From contig QYPU01000022.1 in assembly GCA_007280145.1 (NCBI GenBank), positions 1-33,243 of the forward strand: DNA of 33,243 nucleotides, read 5' to 3'. The notes beneath the pieces were generated by a model, which worked only from the letters and a program-made list of their open reading frames with translations, searched no databases and was not told the origin of the DNA. A program made the position numbers and the translations under genes. This DNA is from Dehalococcoidia bacterium (GTDB lineage: Bacteria > Chloroflexota > Dehalococcoidia > GIF9 > UBA5629). Positions 3,471-21,110 of the stretch are shown here, piece after piece (within the stretch, counting starts at the first letter, position 1; every line of letters begins with the position of its first letter).

Positions 3471-3472
3471 CA

Positions 3473-4651: not shown

Positions 4652-5577
4652 TGGAAAGCTTGGCTATATATGCCCCACGCCTGGTAACTACCAAGGAGTA
4701 CCTTGCTTCAGGGCATCGTGCCTGTTCAGGATGTGGTGAAGTCTTAGCTGTAAGGCTTACATGCAAGGCTTTAGGCAGAAATGTAATCATTGTAAATGCC
4801 ACTGGCTGCATGGAAATTGTTTCCTCCCAACTCCCCTATACTTCCTGGGAAGTACCTTGGATTCATACTCTGTTTGAGAATACTGCCGCTGTAGCTTCAG
4901 GGATAGAAGCCGGGATAAAAGTTCTGAGCCGTAAGGGGGGATATTCTCAAAAAACCAAGGTAGTAGCTATGGCTGGTGACGGGGGCACTATGGATATTGG
5001 TCTCCAGGCTCTATCAGGTGCCTTGGAGAGAGGGCATAACTTTATCTATATTTGTTACGACAACGAAGCCTATATGAACACCGGTATCCAGCGTTCGAGC
5101 GCTACACCTTTTGGTGCTTCTACCACCACATCACCTGCAGGCAAAATAAGCATTGGGCAAACCTCATGGAAGAAAAATATGCCAGCTATTGCTGCTGCTC
5201 ATGATATCCCTTATGTAGCTACTGCTTGCACTAGTTATCCCTTTGACCTGATGAACAAAGTCAAGAAAGCTATGAAAGTTGAAGGGCCGGCTTACATCCA
5301 CGTATTATCTGTTTGCCCCACCGGCTGGCGACTACCTTCTGATTTGACTATCAAGGCAGGACGGTTAGCCGTAGAAACGGGCGTTTTCCCTCTATATGAG
5401 ATAGAAGCAGGTAAGTATACTTTAAATTTTGATTTTCCCCAGCTTCGTCCGGTTGAGGATTACCTGAAGCTGCAAGGGAGATTCCGACATCTCTCCAAAG
5501 AAGTAGTAGCTCAAATTCAGGAGAGAGTAAAGGCTGAATATGCCAAGCTTAAGAGGAAGGTTATCCAGGGTTCGTGA
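4651..5577 (+). CDS. porB: Pyruvate:ferredoxin oxidoreductase beta subunit (TPP-binding)
   Basis: It carries the CSGCGE... FeS/TPP region and the TPP motif GDGGTMDIGLQALSGALERGHNFIYICYDNEAYMNTG. The GTG start overlaps the porA stop. Confidence 0.9.
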   Translation: MESLAIYAPRLVTTKEYLASGHRACSGCGEVLAVRLTCKALGRNVIIVNATGCMEIVSSQLPYTSWEVPWIHTLFENTAAVASGIEAGIKVLSRKGGYSQKTKVVAMAGDGGTMDIGLQALSGALERGHNFIYICYDNEAYMNTGIQRSSATPFGASTTTSPAGKISIGQTSWKKNMPAIAAAHDIPYVATACTSYPFDLMNKVKKAMKVEGPAYIHVLSVCPTGWRLPSDLTIKAGRLAVETGVFPLYEIEAGKYTLNFDFPQLRPVEDYLKLQGRFRHLSKEVVAQIQERVKAEYAKLKRKVIQGS

Positions 5578-6029
5578 TGATGGATGAAAAGGTTATTGCC
5601 GTCATCAACAAATACAATGGAGACAAAGGCCAGCTAATTTCCATACTTCAGGATATCCAGGCTGAATACTATTATCTTCCCAAGGAGGCTTTGGTCCAGG
5701 CAAGCGAAGCTATGGACATTCCCTTAAGCCACGTATATAGTCTGGTCACCTTTTTTAAAGCTTTTAGCCTTGAACCTAGGGGCAAGCATTTAGTTAGTGT
5801 TTGCCTGGGCACTGCTTGCCATGTCAGAGGTGTGGCTAGGGTGCTGGATAAAATTGAACGAAGTTTAGACATCGGGCGAGGTGAAACCACCAAAGACCAT
5901 AAATTCACACTGGAGACGGTCAACTGTATGGGCTGCTGTGCCGTCGGGCCAGCCGTAAAAATTGATGGGGAGTACTTCGGCCAAATGAGTACTGATAAGG
6001 TCGATCCTTTGTTGGCGAAGTTCGAGTAG
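5574..6029 (+). CDS. NuoE/HydC/HndA-like thioredoxin-fold [2Fe-2S] subunit
   Basis: 151 aa. The cysteine pattern VCLGTACHVRG...VNCMGCCAVGPAV is the NuoE-type 2Fe-2S signature. The start (GTG 5574, ATG 5577 or ATG 5580) overlaps the porB TGA. Confidence 0.85.
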   Translation: MMMDEKVIAVINKYNGDKGQLISILQDIQAEYYYLPKEALVQASEAMDIPLSHVYSLVTFFKAFSLEPRGKHLVSVCLGTACHVRGVARVLDKIERSLDIGRGETTKDHKFTLETVNCMGCCAVGPAVKIDGEYFGQMSTDKVDPLLAKFE

Positions 6030-6044
6030 TTAAATAGAGGTAAG

Positions 6045-7910
6045 ATGCTGAATAGACTCTGCTCAAGAAAAGAGTTGGAAGTTCTGCAAAAGGGACTAGT
6101 AAGTAGGATGCAGTCGGAAAAGCTGCGAATTGCTGTATGCAACGGAACAGCTTGTCATCCCTATGGTTGTGTGAAAATCATTGAAGCCTTCAAAACAGAA
6201 CTGGCGAAACAAGGACTGGAAAATAAAGTAGATTTAAAAATCACAGGCTGCCATGGTCTTTGTGAAAGGGGTCCCATTGCGGTTATACGACCAGGTGATA
6301 TTTTTTACCAGCAATTAAAAGTAGAGGATGTGCCTGAGATAATAAGCAAGACAATTGTCAATGGTAATATTATTGATAGATTACTTTATGCCGACCCTGC
6401 TACCGGGAAAAAGCTTGTGTACCAACGAGAGATACCTTTTTACCGAAAGCAGCAAAGACTTATTTTCGGTAGTAATTGTGAAATTGACCCAACCAGTGCC
6501 GAAGATTATATCGCTATAGGCGGTTATACTGCTCTAGCTAAAGCCCTTTTCGAAATGACTCCAGAACAGATAATTGATGAAATTAAGCATTCTGGATTAA
6601 GGGGACGTGGTGGTGGTGGCTTTCCTACTGGAATAAAGTGGGAATCTTGCCGTAATGCTCCAGGAGATATTAGATATGTTATTGTAAATGCTGATGAAGG
6701 TGACCCCGGAGCTTATGCTAATGAAGGTCTACTTACAGGGAATCCACACAGCGTACTTGAAGGGTTAATTATTGGTGCCTATGCTATTGGTGCTCGAGAA
6801 GGCTACGTTTATGTTCGTAATGAATATCCTCTGGCACTAGCCAACATAACGACAGCCATCGAGCAAGCAGAGCAGCTAGGGTTTCTAGGTAACAATATTT
6901 TGGGTTCAGGTTTTGACTTTGATGTCCGTATAACTAGAGGTGGGGGTGCCTTTGTCTGTGGTGAATCCACAGCGCTGATGGCATCTCTAGAAGGTAAAGT
7001 AGGGGAGCCGAGGGCTAAATATGTTCACACGGTGGAGAAGGGGTTGTGGGATAGGCCCAGCGACCTGAATAACGTGGAGACGTGGGCGAATGTGCCGCTA
7101 ATAATCAATAAAGGCGCCGACTGGTACCAGACTATAGGTAGCGAGGGTAATGAAGGGACAAAAATATTTTCTCTAACTGGTAAAGTCAACAATACCGGCT
7201 TGGTAGAAGTACCCATGGGGATAACTCTCCGGGAAATCATTTATGACATTGGTGGTGGGATAAAGGGAGGTAAAAAGTTCAAAGCTGTGCAAACTGGAGG
7301 ACCATCGGGTGGATGCTTGCCTGAAAGCTTGCTTGATTTGCCAGTAGATTTCGATGAGCTAACAAAAGCTGGCTCGATGATGGGCTCTGGCGGCATGATT
7401 GTTATGGATGAAGGTAATTGTATGGTAGATGTGGCTAAGTATTTTCTTACCTTCCTTGAAGAGGAATCTTGTGGCAAGTGCGTGCCATGCCGTGAGGGAA
7501 TCAAGAGAATGCGTCAAATCTTGAATGATATTACTGAAGGCAAGGGCGAAGAAAAAGACATTGACCTTTTGGAGCAGATATCAGCCACTTTAATAGACAG
7601 TTCTCTTTGTGCCTTAGGCACCTCAGCACCAAATCCTGTGTTAACTACTATTCGCTATTTCAGGGATGAATACGAAGCTCATATTAAAGAGAAAAGGTGT
7701 CCTGCCGGTGTCTGTAAGGCGTTAATTCGTTATTACATAATAGAGGAAAAATGCCCGGGCTGTGGTCTTTGTGTTAAAGCTTGCCCCGAGGGAGCTATAA
7801 CCTCTATGGGTAAGGGTAAGAAGAAGCCGGTAGTTCTTGATGAATCAAAATGTATCAAATGTGGTGCTTGCTACGATGTGTGTAGATTAGGGGCTATAGG
7901 CATAGAATAA
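6045..7910 (+). CDS. NuoF/HydB/HndC-like NAD(P)H-binding FMN flavoprotein with extra FeS domains
   Basis: 621 aa. There is an N-terminal extra 2Fe-2S thioredoxin-like domain (CNGTACH...[10 protein letters not shown]). The FMN/NADH site is [13 protein letters not shown] and the N3 cluster is [12 protein letters not shown]. The C-terminus has 2x[4Fe-4S] ([14 protein letters not shown] and [11 protein letters not shown]). Confidence 0.9.
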
Positions 7911-7911
7911 G

Positions 7912-8631
7912 ATGATAACCTTAAGCATTGATGGCCGTGAGTTGAAAGCCGAAAAAGGGCAAACAATTCTCCAGGTAGCTAGCGAAAACGGCATTGATAT
8001 ACCCACTCTCTGCTACCATGAGGCTTTGGAGCCCTATGGTGCCTGTCGGCTATGTGTCGTAGAGATTTTCAAGGGAGGGCGGTCCAGGGTAGTAGCCTCC
8101 TGTCTTTATCCGGTGGAAGAAGGGTTAGAAGTAAAGACCAGTTCACCTCGGGTATTAGATAACCGCAAGATGATATTGGAGCTGCTTTTAGCCCGATGTT
8201 GTAAAAATAAGGTAATACAGGAATTAGCCGCACAGATGGGCATTGAGCAGCCCTCGTTCAAGCCAGAATACCTGGAAGACAACGATTGTATTCTCTGTGG
8301 TTTGTGCGTTAGAGCTTGTGAGCAAGTTGTTGGGGTGAGTGCTATTAGCCTAGTTAATCGTGGGATAACCAAAGAGGTTGCGCCTCCTTTCTTTGAGGCA
8401 GCTACAGCTTGTATCGGTTGCGGCTCCTGCTATTATGTTTGTCCTACTGGTGCCATAAAGATGGAAGATAAGGGAGATACCAGGATAATACATAACTGGA
8501 AGGTCGAGTTTAAACTCAAGAAGTGTAAAGTATGCGGTAATTACTGGGCACCAGAAAAGCAGCTAGATTATATCAGGGATAAATTGCATCTACCTGAAGA
8601 ATTCTTTGATGTCTGCCCCGATTGCAAGTAA
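7912..8631 (+). CDS. Small 2Fe-2S plus 2x[4Fe-4S] protein resembling only the N-terminal FeS part of NuoG/HydA/FdhA
   Basis: 239 aa. It has a plant-type 2Fe-2S N-terminus (ITLSIDGRELKAEKGQTILQVA...CYHEALEPYGACRLCVVE) followed by CILCGLCVRACE and CIGCGSCYYVCPTGA. The C-terminus has CKVCG...CPDCK. There is no H-cluster or molybdopterin domain. The ATG lies 1 nt after the previous stop. Confidence 0.8.
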   Translation: MITLSIDGRELKAEKGQTILQVASENGIDIPTLCYHEALEPYGACRLCVVEIFKGGRSRVVASCLYPVEEGLEVKTSSPRVLDNRKMILELLLARCCKNKVIQELAAQMGIEQPSFKPEYLEDNDCILCGLCVRACEQVVGVSAISLVNRGITKEVAPPFFEAATACIGCGSCYYVCPTGAIKMEDKGDTRIIHNWKVEFKLKKCKVCGNYWAPEKQLDYIRDKLHLPEEFFDVCPDCK

Positions 8632-10453: not shown

Positions 10454-11071
10454 CTATTGCTTTACGAGCTCTATACCCTTGTTGAAAGCTTTCATATTAG
10501 CCTCAATCTCTTTAGGAAAGGTCTCTTGTAATATAGGCTCCACTGATTTCTCGTCTAGCGGCAGAACGCCGGAGCCAATAAGGGCGCCGATAAGAATTGA
10601 ATTGGCGAATATAGGACTCCCCATTTTTTGTGCTTCCTCGGTGGCATTTACTATCCATGTTTTGGCCGACAGCTCCTTAATGGCTTCCATCAGCTTATCC
10701 AAGTCCGGGTATTCAGCCTGACCACCGGTGACGTCAATGGAGTATATTGGCCTGGGGTTGATTATAGTGACGATAGCTGGGTTGCCGAACTGCCTCATCA
10801 TTCGCAAGGTTTCCACCGGTTCCATACCGAGGATGATATCAGCATGGCCATCGGGAATGAATGGGCTGTACTGGGTTTCTCTTGAAATTCTGACGTGGCT
10901 CATAACGGGGCCACCTCGTTGGGATGCCCCATAGGTCTCTCCGATAGTCACCAGGTAGCCCTCTTTCACCAGGGCATTGCCAATAATCAGGGATATCATT
11001 ACATTGCCCTGACCACCGACGCCGGTAATAATAAGGTTAAGCGGGTCTTTCACCAATTGTTTTATGGTCAT
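10454..11071 (-). CDS. iorB: Indolepyruvate (arylpyruvate):ferredoxin oxidoreductase beta subunit
   Basis: MTIKQLVKDPLNLIITGVGGQGNVMISLIIGNAL... is a typical IorB N-terminus. I chose ATG 11071 because it overlaps the iorA TGA as ATGA. The tracked upstream ATG 11125 would run 58 nt into iorA. Confidence 0.88.
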   Translation of the reverse strand: MTIKQLVKDPLNLIITGVGGQGNVMISLIIGNALVKEGYLVTIGETYGASQRGGPVMSHVRISRETQYSPFIPDGHADIILGMEPVETLRMMRQFGNPAIVTIINPRPIYSIDVTGGQAEYPDLDKLMEAIKELSAKTWIVNATEEAQKMGSPIFANSILIGALIGSGVLPLDEKSVEPILQETFPKEIEANMKAFNKGIELVKQ

Positions 11072-13005
11072 GCTGCCTCCTTTATGATGGCTCCTTGTGG
11101 GCAGATGTCTGTACATACGCCGCACCCGGTGCAGATTACCTCGTCTATCTTGGACTTACCAACTTTTTTGTCCCATACCAGCCCAGGGCAGAGAAATACT
11201 CTGGTGCATAATCTGTCACAGCCACAGGCCTCTCCAATGCATTTATCTGGGTCTACATGCACTTTATACGGGGGCTTCTCCTTTTTGCCTCTCACTAGTT
11301 CACACTCACGTCGCATTATGGCTACCTTAGCACCGCCGCCCTCGGCCATCATTTCCAGCAGCGTTGCCGTGGTGCTTTCAAGGTCGAAGGGGTCGCAAAT
11401 CTCAACGCGTGCTCCCAATGAGCGGCATAAGGCTTCCATACTTACCACTTTCGTTGGTTCCCCCATGGCCGTCATTCCAGTTCCAGGGTGGGGTTGGAAA
11501 CCGGTCATGGCGGTGGCATTATTATCCAGAATGACAAGGATAAAATTCGACTGATTGTAGATGCCGTTTATCAATGCCGGGATAGTGGCATGGAAGAAGG
11601 TTGAGTCGCCGCACACGGCAAGCACTGGTTGGTTGAAGCCAAACTGTCCGAGTTTCCCTAGCCCGTTAGCTATTCCAGCTCCAGCTCCCATGCAGTGCAT
11701 TGTCCTCACCTGGAAAAAACCGGCAGGTCCCAGTGCCAGGGAGTAGCAGCCAATATCGCCGGTTACAATACCATCGCGCCCGTCCAGCTTGAGCGCGTTC
11801 TTGATTGCCCAGAAGGTAGCGCGGTGGGGACAGCCAGCGCAAAAGGTCATACTTCGTTCGGGAACGGAGCTTTTGGAGAACTCTTCTGCCTTCTTGCCAT
11901 ACTCAACATCGCGAGGTTGGTATGTGATGCTCGTTATGCTGGCTATTGCTTTAATAACCAGGTCTGGGTTTAGCTCTCCGTAGGCATTTATATGTTTCGA
12001 GCGTTTGCCATAGAAGGTAGGGCGTGGGCTATCGGCTGGCAGGTTGGCAACCATTTCCATCACGCTCCGCTCGAGAAAAGGGTCAATCTCTTCTACAAAT
12101 AGGATTTTCCGTGATTTATTCAGATGCTTTTCCACAAACTTTTCTGGTAGGGGCCATAGGGTGCCCAGCTTCAAGATACCTACCTTATCCTCCAGTTTTA
12201 ATGCCTTCACTGCGTCCTGAGAATAGAGCCAGCAGCTGCCACAAGTTATAATCAACAAATCTGCCTTATCTGGCCCCACATAATAGTTGAAAGGTGACGA
12301 TTCAAACTTTTCCTGTGCCTTGTCCAGCTTTAGATGCAGGAAGGCATGCCGCAGTGCACTCGGGACTGGCATAAATGTCGTCGGCATAACATTTCTTAAA
12401 TCGTGTATCTGGTCGAAATATGCCTTTTGTTCTTTCTTGGGCAACTCACCTAATTTTACATTGCCCCTGGCATGGGCAATACGAGTTACGCTCCGGAGCA
12501 TACACAAGGTGCCTGTCTTCTCGGCAAGGTCAAAAAGCCATTTCGTCATATCCTTGGCTTCCTGAAAAGTGCCCGGCTCTACCAGCGGAATATCCAGCCA
12601 CTTAGCTATAGGCCGTGTATCTTGCTCGTTAGAGCTGGAGATAGCCGACGGGTCATCGCAGCTTATCAAGACCAGTCCTCCCTTCCCTATGCCCGCTATG
12701 ACTAAATTCGCCAAGAAGTCAGAGACGACGTTTACCCCGTTCTGCTTCATACTTGCAAGCGCTCGAATGCCGGCGAAAGAAGCTCCAGCAGCAGCTTCCA
12801 TAGCTACCTTTTCGTTTATAGACCACTCTGCGTAAATGCCCATCTTCTTGGCTATTGGCGCCAGGCTGCCCATAATCTCCGATGATGGCGTCCCCGGGTA
12901 GGAGGCAGCAAATCCTATCCCTGCCTCTAATGCACCCCGGGCAATAGCTTCGTTACCGATAAAAAGTTGGCTGGTACCAGGGGCGTCTATATCAATAGTT
13001 GCCAT
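11068..13005 (-). CDS. iorA: Indolepyruvate:ferredoxin oxidoreductase alpha subunit (TPP and 2x[4Fe-4S])
   Basis: 645 aa. The N-terminus is GNEAIARGALEAGIGFAASYPGTPSSEI, the TPP motif is GDSTFFHATIPALINGIYNQSNFILVILDNNATAMTG, and the C-terminal ferredoxin motifs are CIGEACGCDRLC and CTGCGVCTDICPQGA. Confidence 0.92.
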   Translation of the reverse strand: MATIDIDAPGTSQLFIGNEAIARGALEAGIGFAASYPGTPSSEIMGSLAPIAKKMGIYAEWSINEKVAMEAAAGASFAGIRALASMKQNGVNVVSDFLANLVIAGIGKGGLVLISCDDPSAISSSNEQDTRPIAKWLDIPLVEPGTFQEAKDMTKWLFDLAEKTGTLCMLRSVTRIAHARGNVKLGELPKKEQKAYFDQIHDLRNVMPTTFMPVPSALRHAFLHLKLDKAQEKFESSPFNYYVGPDKADLLIITCGSCWLYSQDAVKALKLEDKVGILKLGTLWPLPEKFVEKHLNKSRKILFVEEIDPFLERSVMEMVANLPADSPRPTFYGKRSKHINAYGELNPDLVIKAIASITSITYQPRDVEYGKKAEEFSKSSVPERSMTFCAGCPHRATFWAIKNALKLDGRDGIVTGDIGCYSLALGPAGFFQVRTMHCMGAGAGIANGLGKLGQFGFNQPVLAVCGDSTFFHATIPALINGIYNQSNFILVILDNNATAMTGFQPHPGTGMTAMGEPTKVVSMEALCRSLGARVEICDPFDLESTTATLLEMMAEGGGAKVAIMRRECELVRGKKEKPPYKVHVDPDKCIGEACGCDRLCTRVFLCPGLVWDKKVGKSKIDEVICTGCGVCTDICPQGAIIKEAA

Positions 13006-13036
13006 GTTACTTACCTCCTTGATTTCCTATCTACTG

Positions 13037-14149
13037 CTAGGCCAATAACTTGTCTGCCAGGGCCGGTGATAAACCAACATAGAGCAGGTTCTTTTTATCA
13101 CCACTCCTCTTGATGATTTCCTTTAATGCCCGTTTCTTTTTGAGCAGCGCTGCCTCCTTAAGATGAGCTAGATTCTGCGGAGGCAACTTATCAGTCTCAA
13201 GTTTCCCTTTTGCTTTAGCCATCTCCATAAGCTTAGCGCCAACATCGGTGCGAATAATAACCGTATTCCAACCTTCGATCCCCTCTACCGAGCCAACCGA
13301 AATATCGGCGAACTCTGATGTCATATCCAAACAATAAGCGCAGGTGGGTATGGTGAATTTCCTGATTTGCTCCAGGGGGAACGAGATTTTACCTGACGGG
13401 GTGTAGGCGTCAAACCTGTTTGCTGGAGGCGGTGGAATATCAAATTTGGTTACCCGAGGTAGGTCAAGGTTCTCTCTCAAGAACTGATAGAATCCATCGG
13501 GAGACAGAGCCCAGGTGCAGAACAAGCCGATTACCAGCTTAACATTGTTTATACTAATCCTGTTCTCAGGTGGCTCTTTTTTCATCTTGGTCAGGGCTAG
13601 AGCCTGGCATGGCATGGCAACTATTCCCAAGCTATGGTTGCTGTCTTTTAGGAAATGATTATAGGTTTCCAATATAGGGCATGCCATATAATTGGAGCCG
13701 GCCCCTTGAAGCACCTCCTCCGCACTTTGGGCCAAAAAGGCAATTGGAGTCTTGTCTTCGGATGTCCTGGTTAAGATTGCGTTGTCAATGAGTCCTTCTG
13801 CTAGTGCTAATGATAAGAGTGTGGTTACCGTTCCGCCATATTGCGCTTTCTCTTTAATCTGTGCATCCGTTGACCTTGCTATCAGCACTTCTTTGGTAGT
13901 GCCTAGTTCATCCTCGCTATATGGTACCCCGAAAACTTGCTGGCTAATGGCATCCATATCCGTGTAGGTACGTGGGCAATATTTGTAACACTGCCCTTCT
14001 GATAGGGTACAATTATCTAGAAGCACTATCTTGCCTTTATAGGGTACCAAGTAAGGGCAACCACCAGTACAGGCGCCACATAGAGTGCATAAGTCCTTAT
14101 CTATAACTTCATTCAGTAGCTCCTTGCAGCCTTTAACCTTTGTATCCAT
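13037..14149 (-). CDS. FrhB/FdhB-family (coenzyme F420 hydrogenase/dehydrogenase beta-like) flavo-iron-sulfur protein
   Basis: 370 aa with RBS AGGAGGAG. The N-terminus has CTLCGACTGGCPY. The core blocks (QYGGTVTTLLSLALAEGLIDNAIL, GSNYMACP, SLGIVAMPCQALAL and IGLFCTW) match the FrhB N/C domain pattern. It lies 31 nt upstream of iorA. Confidence 0.75.
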   Translation of the reverse strand: MDTKVKGCKELLNEVIDKDLCTLCGACTGGCPYLVPYKGKIVLLDNCTLSEGQCYKYCPRTYTDMDAISQQVFGVPYSEDELGTTKEVLIARSTDAQIKEKAQYGGTVTTLLSLALAEGLIDNAILTRTSEDKTPIAFLAQSAEEVLQGAGSNYMACPILETYNHFLKDSNHSLGIVAMPCQALALTKMKKEPPENRISINNVKLVIGLFCTWALSPDGFYQFLRENLDLPRVTKFDIPPPPANRFDAYTPSGKISFPLEQIRKFTIPTCAYCLDMTSEFADISVGSVEGIEGWNTVIIRTDVGAKLMEMAKAKGKLETDKLPPQNLAHLKEAALLKKKRALKEIIKRSGDKKNLLYVGLSPALADKLLA

Positions 14150-14195
14150 AAGCTCCTCCTTTTTGGATTATCCTTATTCACCATGCGTCGGAAGT

Positions 14196-14321
14196 TCATG
14201 CTAAGTTCTGTATTGTGCCATCAGGAATAACCGCTACCTTGGCACCCTTTTGGAATTCTAACTCCCTCTTGCCCTCTTCATACCACATCTGTTTGGGAAC
14301 AGATATTGTCTTAGCGCTCAT
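14196..14321 (-). other. 41-codon ORF (MSAKTISVPKQMWYEEGKRELEFQKGAKVAVIPDGTIQNLA); a small gene or a gene remnant
   Basis: I translated it by hand. The RBS AAGAGGG lies 5 nt before the ATG. It is below the size cut-off of the ORF track and I recognise no family with confidence. Confidence 0.2.
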
Positions 14322-14338
14322 TAAGCCCTCTTATATGG

Positions 14339-14515
14339 TCAATCATCTAGGCTAGCCAGTGGTCGTCCCAGGCCGACATTTACCTTAGCATTAATAGACA
14401 CAGGGACTCCCATTTCCTCAGCTATCTTTTTAGCTGGTGTGCTCGCATCCTTTTCTACAACGGAGATAAGGTTGAGGGTAAAGACCGAATCGACCTCAGG
14501 AGCAATATACTCCAC
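14339..14515 (-). other. 58-codon GTG-start ORF within an 86-codon open frame; a small gene or a gene remnant
   Basis: The open frame translates as ...GGRKGKCILCAEVEYIAPEVDSVFTLNLISVVEKDASTPAKKIAEEMGVPVSINAKVNVGLGRPLASLDD. An AGGAGG lies upstream but at poor spacing, and there is no in-frame ATG. Confidence 0.15.
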
Positions 14516-14614
14516 TTCCGCACATAATATACACTTCCCCTTTCTTCCTCCTGGTATTATTGCCGGTGGGCTCAGTACGCAGCCATGTTTTTCTACATTA
14601 ATTCATGTCAGATA

Positions 14615-15748
14615 TTAAAACCCTTCTTGCAACACATTCTTTAGTTCTTCTTTACTTAGCGTTGCTATCCCCAACTCTTCAAGCGATCTTCCTTTCTTCC
14701 AGTAATTTGTTTGATTTACTACTGAACTTAACTCGATGATGGAATTGATGATTGGAGTGTGTACACCAAGCTTATTGGCCAATAATGCTGTGGGAACTAA
14801 GCCATAGGGGACATCTTCAGTGACATATCTGCTTTGCATGGAGGAAGGTTCGGTGGCTGAAGCAAATGCTTTCCTTATGAACTCTTTGGCTTCAGGGCTT
14901 GAAAGTGCAATCCCCGGAATCCCCTCGCACTCCTGCATTAATTCCTCTATCGATTCAAACGCCTTATCAGGGATCTTAGCGTAGCTCGTCACTCCAAGAG
15001 CTTGCTGTAGCTTTACAGCTTCTTCATAAACTGCCTTGATTACCCTCAGTACTGATGCAGTCATACCATCCCTGTAGAGCCGGTAATCACTTTTCAAAGT
15101 CTCAATATGCCCTACATTTAGGATTGAGCCGACTGGATGCAGAGCATAGTTGATATTGGCTATTGCGACGCCCAAGACATTTTCGGAGGGGGCAACTCTT
15201 AAGACATCTTTTAGATCATGAATGACCTTGCCCGTATCCTTTCCAGGGAATGCTGCTAGACTATTACTCAATGCATAGGAAAGTATTCTTACCCGAGAGG
15301 GAGCTATCAATCTTGCTGCATAAGGAAGTGTACTTGCCTCAGCCAAGATGATGTTCCTCTTCATTTTCTCCTGCCTTAACATATTGGCAAACAATAGACT
15401 AGCGTAGTTCCCAGGCCATGCAACTACGTGTTGACCATCTTCCAAGTGAGGCATTATTAAATCAAAAAAGCGTTTGTGCCCAAACGCCGGGATAACCACC
15501 ATTACGTAGCCAACACCTTTTAATGCCTCTTCAACATCTATAGTTGCTTTGTGCAACTTAGCGGTCCTTTCTTGCCCTATTGGATCAATCAGATCTATCT
15601 CTCCCCGCTCTGATGTTGTTTTGAACCTCTCCCTAAACTCAGGTGCCTCACACATATTCACTTCAAACCCTTTGATTGCCAAGTCGGCGGCCATAGCATG
15701 AGCGCCATTGCCACCACCCATTACAGCTATTTTATTTTTCATTTTCAT
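14615..15748 (-). CDS. NAD(P)-dependent opine (octopine/nopaline-type) dehydrogenase family protein
   Basis: 377 aa. The N-terminal Rossmann fold is KIAVMGGGNGAHAMAADLAIKGFEVNMCE. The overall pattern (FPGKD...LHPVGSILN...YRLYRDGMT) is typical of the Octopine_DH family. Confidence 0.75.
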   Translation of the reverse strand: MKMKNKIAVMGGGNGAHAMAADLAIKGFEVNMCEAPEFRERFKTTSERGEIDLIDPIGQERTAKLHKATIDVEEALKGVGYVMVVIPAFGHKRFFDLIMPHLEDGQHVVAWPGNYASLLFANMLRQEKMKRNIILAEASTLPYAARLIAPSRVRILSYALSNSLAAFPGKDTGKVIHDLKDVLRVAPSENVLGVAIANINYALHPVGSILNVGHIETLKSDYRLYRDGMTASVLRVIKAVYEEAVKLQQALGVTSYAKIPDKAFESIEELMQECEGIPGIALSSPEAKEFIRKAFASATEPSSMQSRYVTEDVPYGLVPTALLANKLGVHTPIINSIIELSSVVNQTNYWKKGRSLEELGIATLSKEELKNVLQEGF

Positions 15749-15786
15749 TCTCCTTTGTTCTTTTTTGTATCGCTGATTTTAGCACC

Positions 15787-17094
15787 TCACCCACCAGTAA
15801 ATAGACGGGGCAAGGTCAGGGATAACGCTGGGAAATAAGTGGTAAGAATTACCACTGGCAAGTGCCCAAAAATCATGAAGACTAAAGCGGGCTTAATATA
15901 CTCATTGAAGGGGACCTCCCCTATTCTCCCAGCGATATAAAGAAGAGGAGCTACCGGTGGTGTGACATTACCGAGGCCTATGTTAACGGCTACAATAGCC
16001 GCGAAGTGAAGGGGATCAATGCCGATCTCTTTTGCCACTGGCAGTAGGATAGCAGCAGCTAAAAGGGTGCCCGACCCATCATCCATAATCATCCCAATGA
16101 AAAGCAGCAAAATATTCAACATTGCCAGCAAAACATACTTATTTTCAGAGAAGCGCATCATGATGTTGGCTAAGTCTTTCGGCACTTCTGCCAACACTAA
16201 AATATGGCTCAACGTAACTAGAAAGAAGAATAAAGCCAGGGCACTACCGGTGAAAGAGGCTGCCTGGACTGTACTGTCTACCACGCCACCGAAGTTAGTG
16301 GTACGATACACGAGGAGCATTATCGGAATGCAGTAGATTATACCCACCGCTGCTGCTTCTGTTGGGGTGAAGACGCCTCCATAAATCCCGCCTAGAATAA
16401 TGATAGGCAGGAGAAGGATGAGAGACGCCCGTTTGCCAGTCGCACCTATGTTTTTGCTGTACTCTATGAAGGTATTCTTGGCAGGCGCTGCGATGGGCAT
16501 TCGGCGACACATCAGAGCGTTGATGATAAGGTAGGAACAGATGATCAAAAGGCCTGGTATGATTGTGGCCAAGAAGCAGAGCGAGATAGGCACTTGGCCT
16601 ACCAGACCGTATATTATCATGGGTAAGCTGGGGGGGATTAGCATAGCGATGAGACTGGAGCAAGCCACAATCCCTGTGGCATATCCTCTGGGATAGCCAT
16701 CTTGCGCCATGCGTGGCATTACAATAGGGCCAATGGCACCTATTGCAGCGAGAGCACTACCCGATATGGCCCCGAAAATACTGCATGTGAGCACGACTAC
16801 TGCACCAAGACTGCTCTTCGCTCGTCGTATTATCGACTGAACGAAGTCGATGAGCCTATCTGCCAAACCGCTTCGGCCCATGAGGTTACCGAGCAGGATG
16901 AAAAGCGGGAATGCCAATAACGTAAAGGACCCCAAAAATCGTAGGGCGTGAGGTGCGATCCAATCGAAGCCTAGGCCGTACCCGAATATCAGGATAATAC
17001 TGCCAATACCGAATGCGAAACCCACCGGCACCCTGATTATCATGAGCCCAATAGCCACGATTAGCCCTACAGCTAGAACGATAAATATAGACAC
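15787..17094 (-). CDS. dctM: TRAP transporter large permease subunit
   Basis: The protein is polytopic, with typical DctM blocks (LGNLMGRSGLADRLIDF and GIDPLHFAAIVAVNIGLGNVTPPVAPLLY). I chose GTG 17094, just after AGGAGG and the dctQ stop. The tracked ATG 17202 would overlap dctQ by 100 nt. Confidence 0.88.
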   Translation of the reverse strand: MSIFIVLAVGLIVAIGLMIIRVPVGFAFGIGSIILIFGYGLGFDWIAPHALRFLGSFTLLAFPLFILLGNLMGRSGLADRLIDFVQSIIRRAKSSLGAVVVLTCSIFGAISGSALAAIGAIGPIVMPRMAQDGYPRGYATGIVACSSLIAMLIPPSLPMIIYGLVGQVPISLCFLATIIPGLLIICSYLIINALMCRRMPIAAPAKNTFIEYSKNIGATGKRASLILLLPIIILGGIYGGVFTPTEAAAVGIIYCIPIMLLVYRTTNFGGVVDSTVQAASFTGSALALFFFLVTLSHILVLAEVPKDLANIMMRFSENKYVLLAMLNILLLFIGMIMDDGSGTLLAAAILLPVAKEIGIDPLHFAAIVAVNIGLGNVTPPVAPLLYIAGRIGEVPFNEYIKPALVFMIFGHLPVVILTTYFPALSLTLPRLFTGG

Positions 17095-17102
17095 ACATCC
17101 TC

Positions 17103-17597
17103 CTACGTCTTTTGCTGTAATATCCCCATTTTTTGCAACAACTCCACTAGGAAATGCAAAAACATTAATACAGAGCCAATGACTGAAGGAACTAGCACCC
17201 ACAGCCTAGAAAAATGATAAGTAGTAGTGATCTCTCTACGACCATAGACAAACAAACAGTACTTAGAAGTCAAGTACACAACCACGCCAGTCGCAACGAG
17301 GCTAAGCAATAATGCTAGCAGGTCACAAATCCTCAAGTCCCGTTGGTTTTTGGTAAGAACGGGGAGTATATCAACAGTTATATGGTTTCTATCGTATGTC
17401 GCGTAGCCAAGTCCTATAAAGTAGAGCCACATCGCTAGCAATATGCATAACTCTTCTATGCCGAAGATAGGAGATTGGAATACATAGCGTAGTACCACCT
17501 CGCTAAACATCAGTATAGTTATCAATAAGAATAGAAAGGTTAAGCATCCCTTGTAGATACCAACATAATAGCGTGAGAATTTGTCTGCCAACTCCAA
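17103..17597 (-). CDS. dctQ: TRAP transporter small permease subunit
   Basis: 164 aa with four TM segments. Its position between dctP and dctM, and the segment VVLRYVFQSPIFGIEEL, are typical of DctQ. Confidence 0.8.
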   Translation of the reverse strand: MELADKFSRYYVGIYKGCLTFLFLLITILMFSEVVLRYVFQSPIFGIEELCILLAMWLYFIGLGYATYDRNHITVDILPVLTKNQRDLRICDLLALLLSLVATGVVVYLTSKYCLFVYGRREITTTYHFSRLWVLVPSVIGSVLMFLHFLVELLQKMGILQQKT

Positions 17598-17674
17598 TCC
17601 TCCGAGAATCGCCCTAGTTAGAGGTCACTATGGGACGCAACACCTGAAGCTTACTTGTAGCCCCCACACATATT

Positions 17675-18727
17675 CTAAGAACCATTGGAGACGTGTGCCC
17701 TTACGAAGTCCATTAGTTCTTTACCAATCAACTTTTCTACAACTGGAAATTCTCCAGCACGTGATCTTGAAACAAAAACTTGTAGCTCCGCTGGTGTTAG
17801 GTGAATTACCTCTATACCCTTCGTTTCTAGCTCTTTCTCCATTTGGCCCTCTCTTTTCTCAGCTTCTCGCCAAGAGTAGTCAGCCATTTCGGTGGCACAA
17901 TTCAAGAGTATTTCTTGGGTTTCCTTGTCTAGTGAGTTCCACAGAGGAAGGTTGATAGTGAAAGGCTGTATCTCGAAATGGTCATACGTCAGAATGGCAT
18001 AGTCTATTACATCATAGTACTGTTTGTTCATCAGCTCTAAGTCGAGCCCGTCTGTATTGTCGATAACGCCGAGTTGCAGGGATGTATATAGTTCACCGTA
18101 CGGTATCGGAGTAACAATAAAGCCCATACCCTTAGCCCCTGCCTCATAATTGGCTGCGGTGGGGACTCTCAGCTTTATTGTGGAGGCTTCCTCCGGTGTG
18201 CGAAATGGCTTCTTTCCACATATGTGGGTGAATCCCAAAGGACGCAGGGCTAATACCTTCTCATCAGTATCCTCCATAATCCCGGAGAACTTAACAGTAA
18301 GCCAACCTTCCTCTCCAAATCCTCCATAGGCTTGTCTAGCTTCATCCCAGGTTGATACTACATAACCCGTGTAGGCTATCGCTGCTCGTATATCCGCAAA
18401 AGGATTGCATGGTCCAGCCGTCATGTCTAGTGTACCCATTGAGACAGCTTCATGCATTGCCGCATAGTCCCCAAGTTGGCCCGCTGGGAAAAAATTTATC
18501 TTGATTTTGCCATGTGACTTCTTGTCAACACATCCGATGAACAATTCGCAAGCCTCATATTGCACTGTGCCCTCAGCGTCTATTGAACCAAGCTCGAAAG
18601 TATATGTAGGCTCGGTTACCGGCGTTGCTTTCCCACACCCGCTGATAGTAACAATTAAGATTATCGGTAGCGTAAGAACACTGAAAACCAACAGCCGCCT
18701 TTTGATTGATTTATGCTTAATAACCAT
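17675..18727 (-). CDS. dctP: TRAP transporter solute-binding protein, lipoprotein-anchored
   Basis: 350 aa. It has a signal peptide with lipobox TISGC. The length is DctP-like, and it sits next to dctQM. Confidence 0.8.
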   Translation of the reverse strand: MVIKHKSIKRRLLVFSVLTLPIILIVTISGCGKATPVTEPTYTFELGSIDAEGTVQYEACELFIGCVDKKSHGKIKINFFPAGQLGDYAAMHEAVSMGTLDMTAGPCNPFADIRAAIAYTGYVVSTWDEARQAYGGFGEEGWLTVKFSGIMEDTDEKVLALRPLGFTHICGKKPFRTPEEASTIKLRVPTAANYEAGAKGMGFIVTPIPYGELYTSLQLGVIDNTDGLDLELMNKQYYDVIDYAILTYDHFEIQPFTINLPLWNSLDKETQEILLNCATEMADYSWREAEKREGQMEKELETKGIEVIHLTPAELQVFVSRSRAGEFPVVEKLIGKELMDFVRAHVSNGS

Positions 18728-18755
18728 CTTAATACCCCCTTTAATTCAATTCGGG

Positions 18756-19790
18756 CTAAATCACCCTGATTCTAGTACCTATGCCACGTTCTTTTGCTCT
18801 CTTGTATATCTCATTAGCCAGCATTAAGTCGTGAGCTCCCATTCCTATATGTGTATAGACGATGCGTTCCTGCTCGTTTTCACGTCCCGGTTTTGCTCCT
18901 GTAACGATCTCTCCCATATCACCGTACACATCATCCCTGGAAAGCTCCATGGGGACCTTGCCATCTCCACGGAGGTCTATAAGATGATGCCCGTCGGAAC
19001 TCATGTCACCGAGAACCCACTTATCAGCTTTTTTGCTGAGCATAGGATCGAGATCTAAAAAGCCCATCAGACCTGACACAAAACAACCCGGTGAGATCCA
19101 TGGCTCGAGCACAACGGGCTTTTGTGCAGTAGTGATGATACAGACAATATCAGCTTCCTCAACTGCTTCTTTAGCCGACTTCGTTGAGATTATCTCTAAC
19201 GGTAGAGACTCTGCATCCTGTTTGAATTTAGCTACAGCCTCTGGTTTAATGTCGTATACTTTGGCTACCTTAAGAGGGAACAGTTCATTGAAAGCTGCCA
19301 AATGGGGAATGGCTTCTAGTCCGCACCCGATTAAAGCTATTGTCTGAGAGTTCTTTTTGGCAAGGTATTTTGCTGCGATTGCTGAATGCCCGGCGGTTCT
19401 CAGAACCGTAATTAGTCCGCCGTCGAGTAGGGCGAAGGGTTTGCCAGTTTCCTTAGGGTCACACAAGAGAACGAGAGCGTAACCTAGGGGCTGACCGGGA
19501 GCACGATTGGCAAAATCGCTACCATACTTAATTCCGGCAACATTTATGGTTTTGATAAAGCCTGGCATGGCGACGAAAAAGTTTAAGTTGTCAGGAGGAT
19601 CTATAAAAGAGAACTCTTTTTGAGGCTGAACGACTTGCCCCATTCCACACGCTTTGTAGGTCATATCTTCTAAATCAATGACATCGTTCCAAGAAACCAG
19701 GCCTAGCATGTCTGATCGATTGAGAACTAAAACCTCTACTTGTATGTCAGCTCCTTCACCCCAAATCTCGCTTACTTCTTCTTTGCTCAT
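18756..19790 (-). CDS. Ornithine cyclodeaminase / mu-crystallin family NAD(P) enzyme
   Basis: 344 aa. The Rossmann motif is TIALIGCGLEAIPHLAAF and the N-terminal dimerisation region is typical of the OCD_Mu_crystall family. The RBS is TAGGAGTG. Confidence 0.75.
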   Translation of the reverse strand: MSKEEVSEIWGEGADIQVEVLVLNRSDMLGLVSWNDVIDLEDMTYKACGMGQVVQPQKEFSFIDPPDNLNFFVAMPGFIKTINVAGIKYGSDFANRAPGQPLGYALVLLCDPKETGKPFALLDGGLITVLRTAGHSAIAAKYLAKKNSQTIALIGCGLEAIPHLAAFNELFPLKVAKVYDIKPEAVAKFKQDAESLPLEIISTKSAKEAVEEADIVCIITTAQKPVVLEPWISPGCFVSGLMGFLDLDPMLSKKADKWVLGDMSSDGHHLIDLRGDGKVPMELSRDDVYGDMGEIVTGAKPGRENEQERIVYTHIGMGAHDLMLANEIYKRAKERGIGTRIRVI

Positions 19791-19952
19791 TTGTTAAACA
19801 CTCCTATTTAATGATTTTCTGCTGTGACATGATTCACTGGATATTATGTCTAGTCTAAAAATCAACCAAAAGACATCACCTCCTTCATTCCTAGCGCCTT
19901 AACTGTTTGTTGTCCCTTGATGGCTATCACCCCCCTCGGTACTTCTTATGGC

Positions 19953-19980
19953 GGTGTTCTACAGTACAGAACACCGTTCT
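19953..19980 (-). promoter_or_regulatory. Operator-like palindrome at the predicted transcription start of the OCD-TRAP-opine DH operon
   Basis: GGTGTTCT-ACAGTAC-AGAACACC has perfect 8-bp arms. A third half-site, GTTCT (19976-19980), follows. The element begins 6-7 nt downstream of the -10 hexamer. Confidence 0.5.
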
Positions 19981-19986
19981 GTGGTA

Positions 19987-20015
19987 ATAATAGCAAAAAA
20001 AAAATACCTTGTCAA
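19987..20015 (-). promoter_or_regulatory. Promoter of the OCD-TRAP-opine DH operon
   Basis: On the minus strand: TTGACA (20010-20015), a 17-nt spacer containing T10 (19995-20004), then TATTAT (19987-19992). Confidence 0.55.
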
Positions 20016-20186
20016 TCCCTCTTAACCGCTTAATAGAAAGGTCTTTCAGGGAAGTGCGGCGCCGCGTACGCCCTATGAGTTGTTTTACTAATTACCGGAG
20101 CGTCGACCAGATTATTTACGGAGTCATCAGCCATATCAATCATGGAAGAAAAAACCCTTAACTGAATTTACACAAAAAACTTAACG

Positions 20187-21011
20187 CTACCTAACCGCTT
20201 TAGCAAGTACATCCTGGTAACCTAAATTGACTGAGATTATATCGGCTCCTCTCCAAACACGTTCAATTAATTCTAGGTATCTCTCAGGTGGACAACGGTC
20301 AACAGAGCTGGTAATGCTTAACGAGGCAACAACGACACTATTATAATCACGGATTGGAGCAGCAATGCAGACAATGCCACTAAGCGTCTCCTCCTCATCA
20401 AGAGCATAACCCTGATGATAGACTTTGTTAAGAACATTCTCCAGCTCGGTCGGGTCTGTTATGGTACTCGCGGTGTACTTAGCCAATTTTGTTTCTCGAA
20501 CGATGCGGTTCACCACTTCCTTAGGTGAATACGCTAAGAGAACCTTGCCTGCTGCTGTAGAGTGAAGGGGCAGGGCCCAGCCTATCCTGGGCACAACGAG
20601 AAATGGGGCAGAGGGCTCTATCCTATCGATAATTAAGGCCTGGTCGCCAGCAAAAATGGACAGATGGACTATCTCACCCAACTCCTCTGAAAGCTGTTGT
20701 ATATATCGACGGGCTACAATTCTTAAATCTCTACCCTTTACCCATCGCATTCCTAGTTGGTATGCTTTTAGCCCTAGTCGATATTTGCTATTTTCAGGGT
20801 TTTGCTCAATAAGTCCTTTGTCTTTTAAGGTTTGAAGCAAACTGTGGACTGTGCTTTTTGCCAAGTTTAAGCTTTGGCTAAGCTCGGTAATTCCCACCTC
20901 ATCGTAGCTAACGAAAGACAACAAGATATCCAAAGCTCTGACCACGGACCGATTAGCATTTCTAAGTGCAATTTTCCTTGTCATCCCTAATCTACTTGCA
21001 AAATAAGTCAC
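20187..21011 (-). CDS. IclR-family transcriptional regulator
   Basis: It has an N-terminal wHTH (VVRALDILLSFVSYDEVGITELSQSLNLAKSTVHSLLQTLKDKGLIEQ) and a C-terminal effector domain (GKVLLAY...YALDEEETLSGIVCIAAPI). The start is uncertain: GTG 21011 or ATG 20984. Confidence 0.88.
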   Translation of the reverse strand: MTYFASRLGMTRKIALRNANRSVVRALDILLSFVSYDEVGITELSQSLNLAKSTVHSLLQTLKDKGLIEQNPENSKYRLGLKAYQLGMRWVKGRDLRIVARRYIQQLSEELGEIVHLSIFAGDQALIIDRIEPSAPFLVVPRIGWALPLHSTAAGKVLLAYSPKEVVNRIVRETKLAKYTASTITDPTELENVLNKVYHQGYALDEEETLSGIVCIAAPIRDYNSVVVASLSITSSVDRCPPERYLELIERVWRGADIISVNLGYQDVLAKAVR

Positions 21012-21029
21012 ATTTAACTTGTTTCCCTA

Positions 21030-21045
21030 AACCCACTTGTGGGTT
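21030..21045. promoter_or_regulatory. Perfect inverted repeat in the iclR 5' leader
   Basis: AACCCAC-TT-GTGGGTT, about 30-45 nt downstream of the predicted iclR transcription start. It is a candidate autoregulatory site or an RNA hairpin. Confidence 0.3.
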
Positions 21046-21081
21046 GCCTTCAGGGGTTGTTCATTTTTCCCTTAAAGCAAA

Positions 21082-21110
21082 ATTATAATACTACTGCGTC
21101 CTCCCGTCAA
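21082..21110 (-). promoter_or_regulatory. iclR promoter
   Basis: On the minus strand: TTGACG (21105-21110), a 17-nt spacer, then TATAAT (21082-21087). Confidence 0.55.

Follow-up and report, generated by a model that had tools for sequence, protein, structure and literature searches.

A TRAP-transporter operon pairing opine-dehydrogenase- and OCD-family enzymes in a lake Dehalococcoidia bacterium: a candidate route for a carboxylated secondary amine

We analyzed a 33,243-nucleotide stretch of the genome of a Dehalococcoidia bacterium (contig QYPU01000022.1; this whole stretch is called the window below) and focused on six open reading frames (ORFs) on the minus strand between positions 21011 and 14615, each of which scores above the Pfam gathering threshold in a profile search of the window proteins. 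In order, they encode an IclR-family regulator, a member of the ornithine cyclodeaminase (OCD)/mu-crystallin family, the DctP, DctQ and DctM components of a tripartite ATP-independent periplasmic (TRAP) transporter, and a member of the Octopine_DH family. The regulator (20187..21011; HTH_IclR and IclR_C domains) has 265 residues from the ATG at 20983 or 274 from the GTG at 21011. The OCD-family protein, an NAD-type dehydrogenase/reductase of 344 residues (18756..19790), is followed by the solute-binding lipoprotein DctP (17675..18727, 350 residues, 159.4 bits), the small membrane subunit DctQ (17103..17597 with an alternative start at 17591, 74.4 bits), the large permease DctM (15787..17094, 435 residues, 282 bits), and the NAD-type opine dehydrogenase (14615..15748 with an alternative start at 15742, 375-377 residues). 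All six genes had been named, with these families and within these limits, in an earlier note on this DNA, and the Pfam scores agree with it on every one.

Gene starts were taken from the calls on identical metagenome contigs (DctM 17094, DctQ 17591, IclR 20983, opine dehydrogenase 15742). The intergenic gaps are 28 nt between the OCD gene and dctP, 77 or 83 nt between dctP and dctQ, 8 nt between dctQ and dctM, and 38-44 nt between dctM and the opine dehydrogenase gene; the longest dctM ORF (GTG at 17202) would overlap dctQ in place of the 8-nt gap. The range of 28-77 nt reported previously thus holds except at the dctQ-dctM junction. The IclR gene lies directly upstream on the same strand, 396 nt from the OCD gene, as had been described, but has its own transcript. 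Core genes flank the cluster, with rpoB and rpoC upstream and divergent on one side, and an indolepyruvate:ferredoxin oxidoreductase (IOR) operon and lexA on the other. The region shows no shift in GC content, and no mobility genes, integrase or tRNA borders are present around the cluster; neither composition nor border genes give evidence of horizontal acquisition. The word "island" used in the earlier note is therefore apt for a gene cluster, but not for an acquired element.

Several lake and freshwater metagenomes contain contigs that match the locus at 99.99% identity over 10.7 kb, with a contig depth of up to about 200 in one sample. The named best matches of the opine-dehydrogenase- and OCD-family enzymes are Dehalococcoidia, which, together with the gene content, fits the proposed anaerobic Chloroflexota-type host; the GTDB species representatives do not include this species, and their best opine dehydrogenase match is 55% identical. 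Between 50 and 63% of the sampled 31-mers of the locus are present in seven lake metatranscriptomes, and RNA contigs from four of the seven were placed on the window. One contig (17168-18963) joins dctQ, dctP and the 3' end of the OCD gene, a second (16941-17580) bridges dctM and dctQ, and a third, 159 nt long (15634-15792), covers the 5' end of the opine dehydrogenase gene, the gap, and the dctM stop codon. The genes from OCD through dctM are one transcription unit, and the contigs are consistent with membership of the opine dehydrogenase gene in the same unit, in line with the co-transcription on which the original proposal depended. In all four runs, RNA contigs over the OCD gene extend to 19979 at most, the IclR gene has separate contigs (20061-21070, depth 20-42), and no RNA was found over 19980-20060. 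RNA depth declines along the operon, from 7-15 over the OCD gene to 4-9 over dctP and 1-5 over dctM and the opine dehydrogenase gene. Five co-oriented genes thus lie behind one promoter, with a transcription start near 19980, and are transcribed in lake water.

The two transcript boundaries coincide with the best two promoter-like sites on the minus strand in a consensus scan. The predicted operon promoter, TTGACA-17-TgcTATTAT (minus strand, 19987..20015; 11/12 matches, with an extended TG), adjoins the 5' limit of the operon RNA at 19979, and the predicted IclR promoter, TTGACG-17-TATAAT (minus strand, 21082..21110), lies by the ends of the IclR contigs, at 21062-21070 in four runs. The RNA contig ends define a 5' untranslated region (UTR) of about 190 nt (19791..19980, minus strand), near the start of which is a perfect 9+9 inverted repeat, CGGTGTTCT-N7-AGAACACCG (19952..19976, minus strand), which would occupy transcript positions +5 to +29; no other perfect GTTCT-N7-AGAAC occurs in the window. 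Chance alone could readily supply a 9+9 repeat in 33 kb of DNA; what matters is that this one sits on the transcription start, and we infer from that a candidate IclR operator. The palindrome also makes a 5' hairpin in the RNA, the sole strong element of an otherwise unremarkable leader fold (z-score -1.2, not unusual for the 190 nt). Neither this UTR nor the 465-nt gap that follows the opine dehydrogenase gene has an Rfam match to a riboswitch or leader, whether at the gathering threshold or with the limit relaxed to E≤1. No second copy of the palindrome lies at the promoter of IclR or of IOR, and there is thus no sign of a wider regulon. The regulator itself contains both family domains (IclR_C, 160.9 bits; HTH_IclR, 51.6 bits) and reaches no NCBIfam equivalog, the best being BhcR (178 bits vs a cutoff of 350). 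The regulator named in the earlier note is present, with a candidate operator at the operon start.

The spacer of the operon promoter contains a T-run (19993-20002, minus strand) that is the only difference between the window and four assemblies over 10.7 kb. The window has T10, giving a 17-nt spacer, and the four independent assemblies have T9, giving a 16-nt spacer; short-read metagenome assemblies hold both (T10 in run X1; T9 in runs X2, X6 and X9). This variation may adjust promoter strength at the level of the population, or the site may simply be neutral or prone to assembly error.

All three TRAP components are encoded together, with DctM scoring 319 bits against TIGR00786 (cutoff 268) and DctP 133 bits against NF037995 (cutoff 50). 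The N-terminus of DctP, MVIKHKSIKRRLLVFSVLTLPIILIVTISGC, consists of a charged n-region, a hydrophobic core and the lipobox I-S-G-C, as expected from its earlier description as a lipoprotein, and this signal fits a monoderm Chloroflexota-type cell. In an exhaustive HMMER search of 1.84 billion representatives, the nearest relative of DctP is 36-37% identical, and its best PDB matches (4p47, isethionate-binding protein and SiaP) are remote. The Arg of its IKLRVP motif aligns with LKIRT of 4p47, at the equivalent of the carboxylate-pairing Arg147 of SiaP. This carboxylate-binding Arg is kept in 26 of 26 aligned relatives; DGQENP, the usual motif, is missing throughout the divergent subgroup. The alignment suggests a ligand that bears a carboxylate; nothing more is transferable.

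The OCD-family protein belongs clearly to PF02423 (179.9 bits vs a gathering cutoff of 24), and the earlier note had likened it to the Agrobacterium scheme, in which OCD turns ornithine into proline. That analogy fails on two counts. The ornithine cyclodeaminase equivalogs are not reached (PRK07589, 102 bits vs 350; PRK06407, 34 vs 337), and the protein has a 4-residue deletion at the position of G-A-D219-G in the alanine dehydrogenase (AlaDH) AfAlaDH (1omo). Asp219 of AfAlaDH is the counterpart of OCD Asp228 (P. putida numbering), which is active in all cyclodeamination steps (PMC4141209). Because this loop is deleted, the protein appears to be a dehydrogenase/reductase of the AlaDH, LhpI and SbnB kind and, on its sequence, is not an ornithine cyclodeaminase. 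The numbering of TlLhpI Leu52 and Val244 does not reconcile with the 6t3e chain, and Asp219 in 1omo serves as the reference instead. Other equivalogs of the superfamily are likewise not reached (bits/cutoff: AlaDH 171/409, SbnB 161/327, PRK06141 129/322, EutC 95/472, BhcD 92/500, LhpI 67/400), the best NCBIfam match being archaeal AlaDH. Among solved structures, the closest are the T. litoralis pyrroline-2-carboxylate (Pyr2C) reductase 6t3e (161 bits), SbnB (136) and AfAlaDH (134), with CRYM (94), BhcD (78) and true OCD (1u7h, 61-62) more distant. The caveat that such a protein could be a ketimine reductase or an amino-acid dehydrogenase is thus the better reading.

The opine dehydrogenase contains a C-terminal helical Octopine_DH domain (PF02317, 116 bits vs a cutoff of 30) at residues 188-343. 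Its closest solved relative is N-(1-D-carboxyethyl)-L-norvaline dehydrogenase (CENDH) of Arthrobacter sp. 1C (1bg6; E = 1e-35 over the full length, about 30% identity); octopine dehydrogenase is distant (E = 4e-12), and weak Pfam matches to ketopantoate and glycerol-3-phosphate (G3P) dehydrogenases reflect a shared fold. The Rossmann dinucleotide motif GGGNGAH occupies residues 11-17, and His204, Arg307 and Asp312 align with His202, Arg292 and Asp297, the catalytic residues of CENDH. The motif and these three residues, common to CENDH and the window enzyme, are invariant in 21 subfamily members. CENDH differs in having no known transporter or OCD partner. An acidic residue stands after beta-2 in both window enzymes (Glu34 in the opine dehydrogenase, invariant in the subfamily; Asp180 in the OCD-family protein, invariant at the end of beta-2), which points to NAD rather than NADP. 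The opine-dehydrogenase-family enzyme is probably an NAD-linked C-N-bond dehydrogenase. It belongs to a large clade without characterised function: hundreds of relatives share 50-57% identity with it, and there are 566 relatives in a species-level genome collection, all from uncultured anaerobes.

We compared the neighbourhoods of related genes in 80 genome loci around opine dehydrogenase relatives and 80 metagenome loci around OCD relatives, which were searched with the window proteins and annotated. OCD-family and opine-dehydrogenase-family genes are adjacent in at least nine unrelated loci. One (L092) reads DctPQM, PrpD, HyuAB (hydantoinase/oxoprolinase), opine dehydrogenase, OCD (55% identical) and a saccharopine-dehydrogenase-like gene; others read kinase, OCD, opine dehydrogenase and DctPQM (L087), kinase, OCD, opine dehydrogenase and MttB (L082), DctM, OCD, PrpD, Amdase/racemase and opine dehydrogenase (L100), or OCD, opine dehydrogenase, M24 (creatinase/prolidase) and MR_MLE (L102). 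The pair is found in Bathyarchaeota along with DAO, Pyr_redox_2 and aconitase X (AcnX) genes (L086), and again in L120, L154 and L167. The order OCD-dctP-dctQ-dctM recurs in L095 (OCD 55%, DctM 43%, DctP 32% identical), which has a two-subunit AcnX at its end and no opine dehydrogenase, and TRAP genes accompany an opine dehydrogenase, often with a second one in tandem, in Desulfobacterales (L039, L041, L049, L043, L042). An opine dehydrogenase gene lies within 6 kb in 5 of 46 OCD-anchored loci, and TRAP genes occur in 7 of 70 opine dehydrogenase loci; by our own estimate, which is not a formal test, the pairing is well above chance, as both families are rare per genome. Because the OCD-family, opine-dehydrogenase-family and TRAP genes recur together in unrelated anaerobes, this comparison indicates that their linkage is functional. 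The partner genes (saccharopine-dehydrogenase-like, PrpD family, which includes iminodisuccinate epimerase, oxoprolinase/hydantoinase, racemase-like, M24/creatinase and MR_MLE) all work on N-substituted or cyclic amino-acid derivatives, and they support secondary-amine or imino carboxylates as the general substrate class. Our literature search found nothing relevant linking opine dehydrogenase or PF02317 with TRAP, OCD or Dehalococcoidia.

Several features of these loci deserve mention in their own right. The L095 AcnX (5524-7235; 428 + 157 residues, after OCD-dctPQM) is of the uncharacterised type IIc-f, for which the literature describes no landmark residues, and its transporter and partner enzyme could help to assign its function; we had considered it as evidence for cis-3-hydroxyproline and rejected it, as it has Ala at the position of AtAcnX Asp203, which binds the imino nitrogen, and the mevalonate-5-phosphate loop of TkAcnX is absent. 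In L082, L087 and L154 (Desulfobacterales-type), an APH/choline-kinase-like phosphotransferase, an OCD-family gene and an opine-dehydrogenase-family gene form a recurring triad; what comes after it varies, from TRAP genes to a methyltransferase of the MttB family or something else. Beside OCD genes in L092 (13582-14709), L120 (6899-8032) and L154 (3198-4343) lies a gene for a protein of about 375-380 residues with an N-terminal Rossmann-like GLGDLGG motif; the protein has no significant Pfam match, and a faint match to the saccharopine dehydrogenase NADP domain in L120 only. Finally, opine dehydrogenase relatives of 37-41% identity (Syntrophorhabdus, Syntrophaceae, Thermodesulfobacteriota) stand directly upstream of formate-tetrahydrofolate ligase (L046, L047, L052, L053, L055, L058, L061, L063-L065, L068, L069, L072, L073, L079), after which come FolD, RACo, a CooC/CbiA-like ATPase, a pterin-binding methyltransferase and CdhD, a Wood-Ljungdahl methyl-branch cluster. 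As pure speculation, an imine-reducing fold in such a cluster might act on a folate-bound one-carbon intermediate.

We lean, by a little more than an even balance, towards an operon that responds to its substrate and serves to break down an imported secondary amine with a carboxylate group, either an N-(carboxyalkyl) amino acid resembling an opine or an imino acid. IclR would bind the palindrome overlapping the transcription start and would be released by the substrate or an intermediate. Lipid-anchored DctP would capture the compound through the conserved Arg-carboxylate contact, and DctQM would import it. With NAD+, the opine-dehydrogenase-family enzyme would then oxidise the bond from nitrogen to the (D-)carboxyalkyl carbon, giving an imine that, for an acyclic opine, would hydrolyse to a 2-oxo acid and an L-amino acid. 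The OCD-family enzyme, as a protein of the AlaDH/SbnB/Pyr2C-reductase type, would carry out a second C-N redox step, the oxidative deamination of the released L-amino acid, and the resulting 2-oxo acids would be consumed by the 2-oxoacid:ferredoxin oxidoreductases whose genes lie to either side of the cluster (IOR and one like pyruvate:ferredoxin oxidoreductase, PFOR). Opine or imino-acid catabolism, as first suggested for this locus, thus survives as the most economical account of an OCD/opine-dehydrogenase pair that recurs, often with TRAP genes, in unrelated lineages; the Agrobacterium logic attached to it does not. As to the specific substrate, a hydrophobic or aromatic N-(1-carboxyalkyl) amino acid is our tentative and weakly favoured choice, because CENDH, the closest characterised relative, prefers hydrophobic amino acids, because homologues of the opine dehydrogenase are linked to PF04392 binding proteins, and because the IOR operon is directly downstream.

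The linkage to PF04392 was observed in 13-17 loci, in which opine dehydrogenase homologues of 47-57% identity adjoin an ATP-binding cassette (ABC) importer with a PF04392 binding protein; the one in L012 matches 3lkv and 3lft. Solved PF04392 members bind L-Trp, L-Tyr or L-Phe (PMC10443332). Some of these ABC-linked loci also carry an aminotransferase, PALP, aldehyde:ferredoxin oxidoreductase (AFOR) or MttB gene.

A number of observations weigh against the reading that we prefer. The closest opine dehydrogenase homologues, those at 47-57% in Dehalococcoidia, are not beside OCD or TRAP genes, and a 71% homologue (P0002) has no dctM upstream, because of which the window operon looks like a lineage-specific mosaic of an OCD-TRAP module of the L095 kind and an opine dehydrogenase from the aromatic/hydrophobic-uptake clade (a 62% OCD homologue, P0122, is on a 1.6-kb contig whose context is uninformative). 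The opine dehydrogenase, the OCD-family protein and DctP reach no specificity-level equivalog cutoff in NCBIfam, so that specificity is not transferable, and the DctP ligand cannot be read from homology because no relative exceeds 37% identity. The RNA depth over the IOR region is low (0-5), and its linkage to opine dehydrogenase relatives is not conserved elsewhere. The junction between dctM and the opine dehydrogenase gene is covered by the single 159-nt contig, and the RNA contigs as a whole are assembler contigs without strand information in which some DNA carry-over is possible; their sharp, promoter-matched boundaries and the more than 10-fold differences between neighbouring genes nevertheless indicate that they reflect RNA. 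Finally, the closest characterised relative of the OCD-family protein prefers a cyclic ketimine, Pyr2C (PMC4141209).

This last point is the starting place for the strongest alternative, to which we give perhaps half the credence of the preferred reading: conversion of a cyclic imino acid by two dehydrogenases of opposite stereochemistry. The TRAP transporter would import a hydroxylated or D-configured imino acid (for example D-proline, D-pipecolate or an isomer of hydroxyproline), the opine dehydrogenase would oxidise the D C-alpha-N bond to a ketimine of the Pyr2C or piperideine-2-carboxylate (Pip2C) type, and the OCD-family enzyme would reduce the ketimine to the L-imino acid. The route would be redox-neutral on NAD and would replace the flavin D-amino-acid dehydrogenases of aerobes. 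The match to 6t3e, the missing cyclodeaminase Asp loop and the apparent NAD specificity of both enzymes all suit it, as do the proline-type enzymes beside OCD relatives in L102 (M24/creatinase-prolidase and MR_MLE) and L086 (DAO, Pyr_redox_2 and AcnX). It is established chemistry that opine dehydrogenases make or attack a D-configured N-substituted alpha-carbon; that D-proline presents the same configuration to such an enzyme is our own extension. Against it, activity on cyclic imino acids is not known for any enzyme of the opine dehydrogenase family, the window was found to encode no proline racemase, proline dehydrogenase (ProDH) or pyrroline-5-carboxylate enzyme, and L095, whose AcnX lacks Asp203 and falls in an uncharacterised type II subclass, gives no support for proline chemistry. 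TlLhpI itself, in which Pyr2C is preferred, also has AlaDH and N-methyl-Ala dehydrogenase activities (PMC4141209). A more specific proposal is doubtful: in strict anaerobes, an opine-dehydrogenase-fold enzyme would serve as an NAD-linked D-imino-acid or N-alkyl-D-amino-acid dehydrogenase and would work together with a ketimine reductase of the OCD family, so that imported D- or hydroxy-imino acids are inverted or salvaged without flavin and with no net redox change.

Two known types of cluster are among the systems nearest to this one. For T. litoralis LhpI and the archaeal and bacterial hydroxyproline clusters, the common point is that LhpI, like the window protein, lacks the OCD catalytic Asp; in contrast, the window is without a proline-racemase-type dehydratase/epimerase, ProDH and a characterised AcnX, and the partner of its OCD-family protein is an opine dehydrogenase fold with a TRAP transporter. 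The ectoine/hydroxyectoine clusters (UehABC TRAP, EutABC, EutD/DoeA, EnuR) resemble the window in setting a TRAP transporter beside an OCD-family enzyme (EutC) for an N-heterocyclic carboxylate, and genes resembling EutA (Amdase/racemase) and DoeA (M24/creatinase) are present in the related loci L100 and L102. However, the EutC score of the window protein is 95 vs 472, the window has no hydrolase/deacetylase and no pyridoxal-phosphate (PLP) enzyme, and the regulator is of another family.

It is unlikely that the proteins share no secondary-amine substrate at all, with the TRAP transporter importing an ordinary 2-oxo, hydroxy or amino carboxylate, the opine dehydrogenase acting as a 2-oxo/2-hydroxy acid or amino-acid dehydrogenase, and the OCD-family protein handling ammonia as an AlaDH-type enzyme in support of amino-acid fermentation via IOR and PFOR. 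Such an arrangement would accommodate the sub-cutoff archaeal AlaDH match (171 bits) and the fold shared with ketopantoate and G3P dehydrogenases, as well as the closest opine dehydrogenase relatives, which adjoin aromatic-amino-acid-type ABC importers, an aminotransferase and AFOR rather than OCD genes; the 37-41% group in Wood-Ljungdahl clusters likewise speaks for a functionally diverse family. Yet the catalytic triad of the opine dehydrogenase is intact, including the Arg that holds the 2-oxo acid carboxylate, and the repeated independent adjacency of OCD and opine dehydrogenase genes is hard to explain without a shared pathway.

Catabolism of an octopine- or nopaline-like compound of the Agrobacterium type, in which the opine would yield an ornithine/arginine-type amino acid and a true OCD would make proline, we consider very improbable. 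The formal parallel with the Ti-plasmid occ/noc systems (OccR/NocR, ABC permease, OoxAB/NoxAB, arginase, Ocd) is real: in each, a regulator accompanies an importer that depends on a binding protein, an oxidoreductase that cleaves a C-N bond, and a gene of the OCD family. The earlier note had drawn this analogy with three differences, and all three hold: the importer is TRAP rather than ABC, cleavage is assigned to a soluble NAD-type opine dehydrogenase fold rather than a membrane-associated flavoprotein oxidase, and the host is an anaerobe. The shared logic itself fails, since there is no true OCD: the PRK07589 score is 102 bits vs 350, 1u7h scores 61 bits vs 161 for the Pyr2C reductase, and the equivalent of Asp228 is deleted (PMC4141209). 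The window locus differs further in having IclR in place of LysR and in being chromosomal, beside rpoBC. No arginase was found anywhere in the window by profile searches of its proteins, as had been stated, and no ABC opine permease, flavin OoxAB/NoxAB or LysR regulator in the cluster or window. Judged by its predicted proteins, the operon works like an opine/imino-acid catabolic operon, not of the Ti-plasmid type, and neither enzyme fits a characterised subfamily.

SbnB, of the staphyloferrin B precursor pathway SbnA/SbnB, belongs to the OCD family too: it splits an N-(carboxyalkyl) amino acid resembling an opine by oxidation, and its loop is shortened as in the window protein. It differs in being biosynthetic and paired with the PLP enzyme SbnA, and the window protein scores 161 vs 327 on its equivalog. 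A biosynthetic or redox-sink direction (synthesis of an opine-type metallophore or osmolyte, or NADH disposal as by invertebrate opine dehydrogenases) could draw on SbnB as the second-best PDB match, on the reversibility of opine dehydrogenases and on SbnB-like and CntM-like enzymes, which are biosynthetic, but it is highly improbable, as TRAP systems with a binding protein are importers, the cluster has no CntL- or SbnA-type partner or exporter, IclR-controlled operons with a binding protein are typically catabolic, and both enzymes look NAD-specific, not NADPH-specific.

The catabolic reading that we prefer would send 2-oxo acids to neighbouring oxidoreductases. After a 465-nt gap from the opine dehydrogenase gene, the minus strand carries genes for an FrhB-like Fe-S flavoprotein and the alpha and beta subunits of IOR (10454..14149; Pfam/NCBIfam; IOR_alpha 582 bits vs a cutoff of 651), which, as downstream neighbours, are a possible sink for 2-oxo acids. 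The FrhB/FdhB-like protein (370 residues, N-terminal 4Fe-4S motif) is encoded 31 nt upstream of iorA, which is followed by iorB, a placement that suggests an unusual electron-transfer partner for IOR here. Further along (2583-8631) are PFOR-like gamma/delta, alpha and beta genes, then genes for NuoE-like, NuoF-like and 2Fe-2S/4Fe-4S proteins, a set resembling a 2-oxoacid oxidoreductase coupled to an NADH-linked module, so that, with IOR, two 2-oxoacid:ferredoxin oxidoreductase systems are encoded in the window in a space of 13 kb. The 465-nt gap (14150-14614) contains small ORFs of 58 residues (14515..14339, GTG start) and 41 residues (14321..14196), and RNA contigs (14378-14685 and 14100-14260) extend beyond the opine dehydrogenase stop. 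The gap could be an extended 3' UTR, could be transcribed by read-through towards the FrhB-like/IOR genes, or could contain genes for small proteins or the remains of genes; the last is unsupported, since the gap has no tblastx match in any of 170 fetched loci.

The opine dehydrogenase fold is familiar from the enzymes of crown-gall plasmids, of invertebrate muscle and of metallophore synthesis, and from a single Arthrobacter enzyme; to our knowledge, no member of the clade found in uncultured anaerobes has a known function. The operon described here is a compact entry point to that clade, transcribed in situ, that comes with an importer, a partner enzyme, a regulator and a candidate operator, and it is tractable, offering a defined DNA site and four soluble proteins for expression. 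The identity of the ligand would show which nitrogenous carboxylates the abundant Dehalococcoidia-like bacteria of lakes scavenge, and the clade could yield NAD-dependent secondary-amine dehydrogenases, an enzyme class used in biocatalysis. Should the D-imino-acid dehydrogenase reading prove true, it would give the opine dehydrogenase family a new catalytic role, and would provide the first function for a clade whose members number in the hundreds across Dehalococcoidia, Desulfobacterota and archaea.

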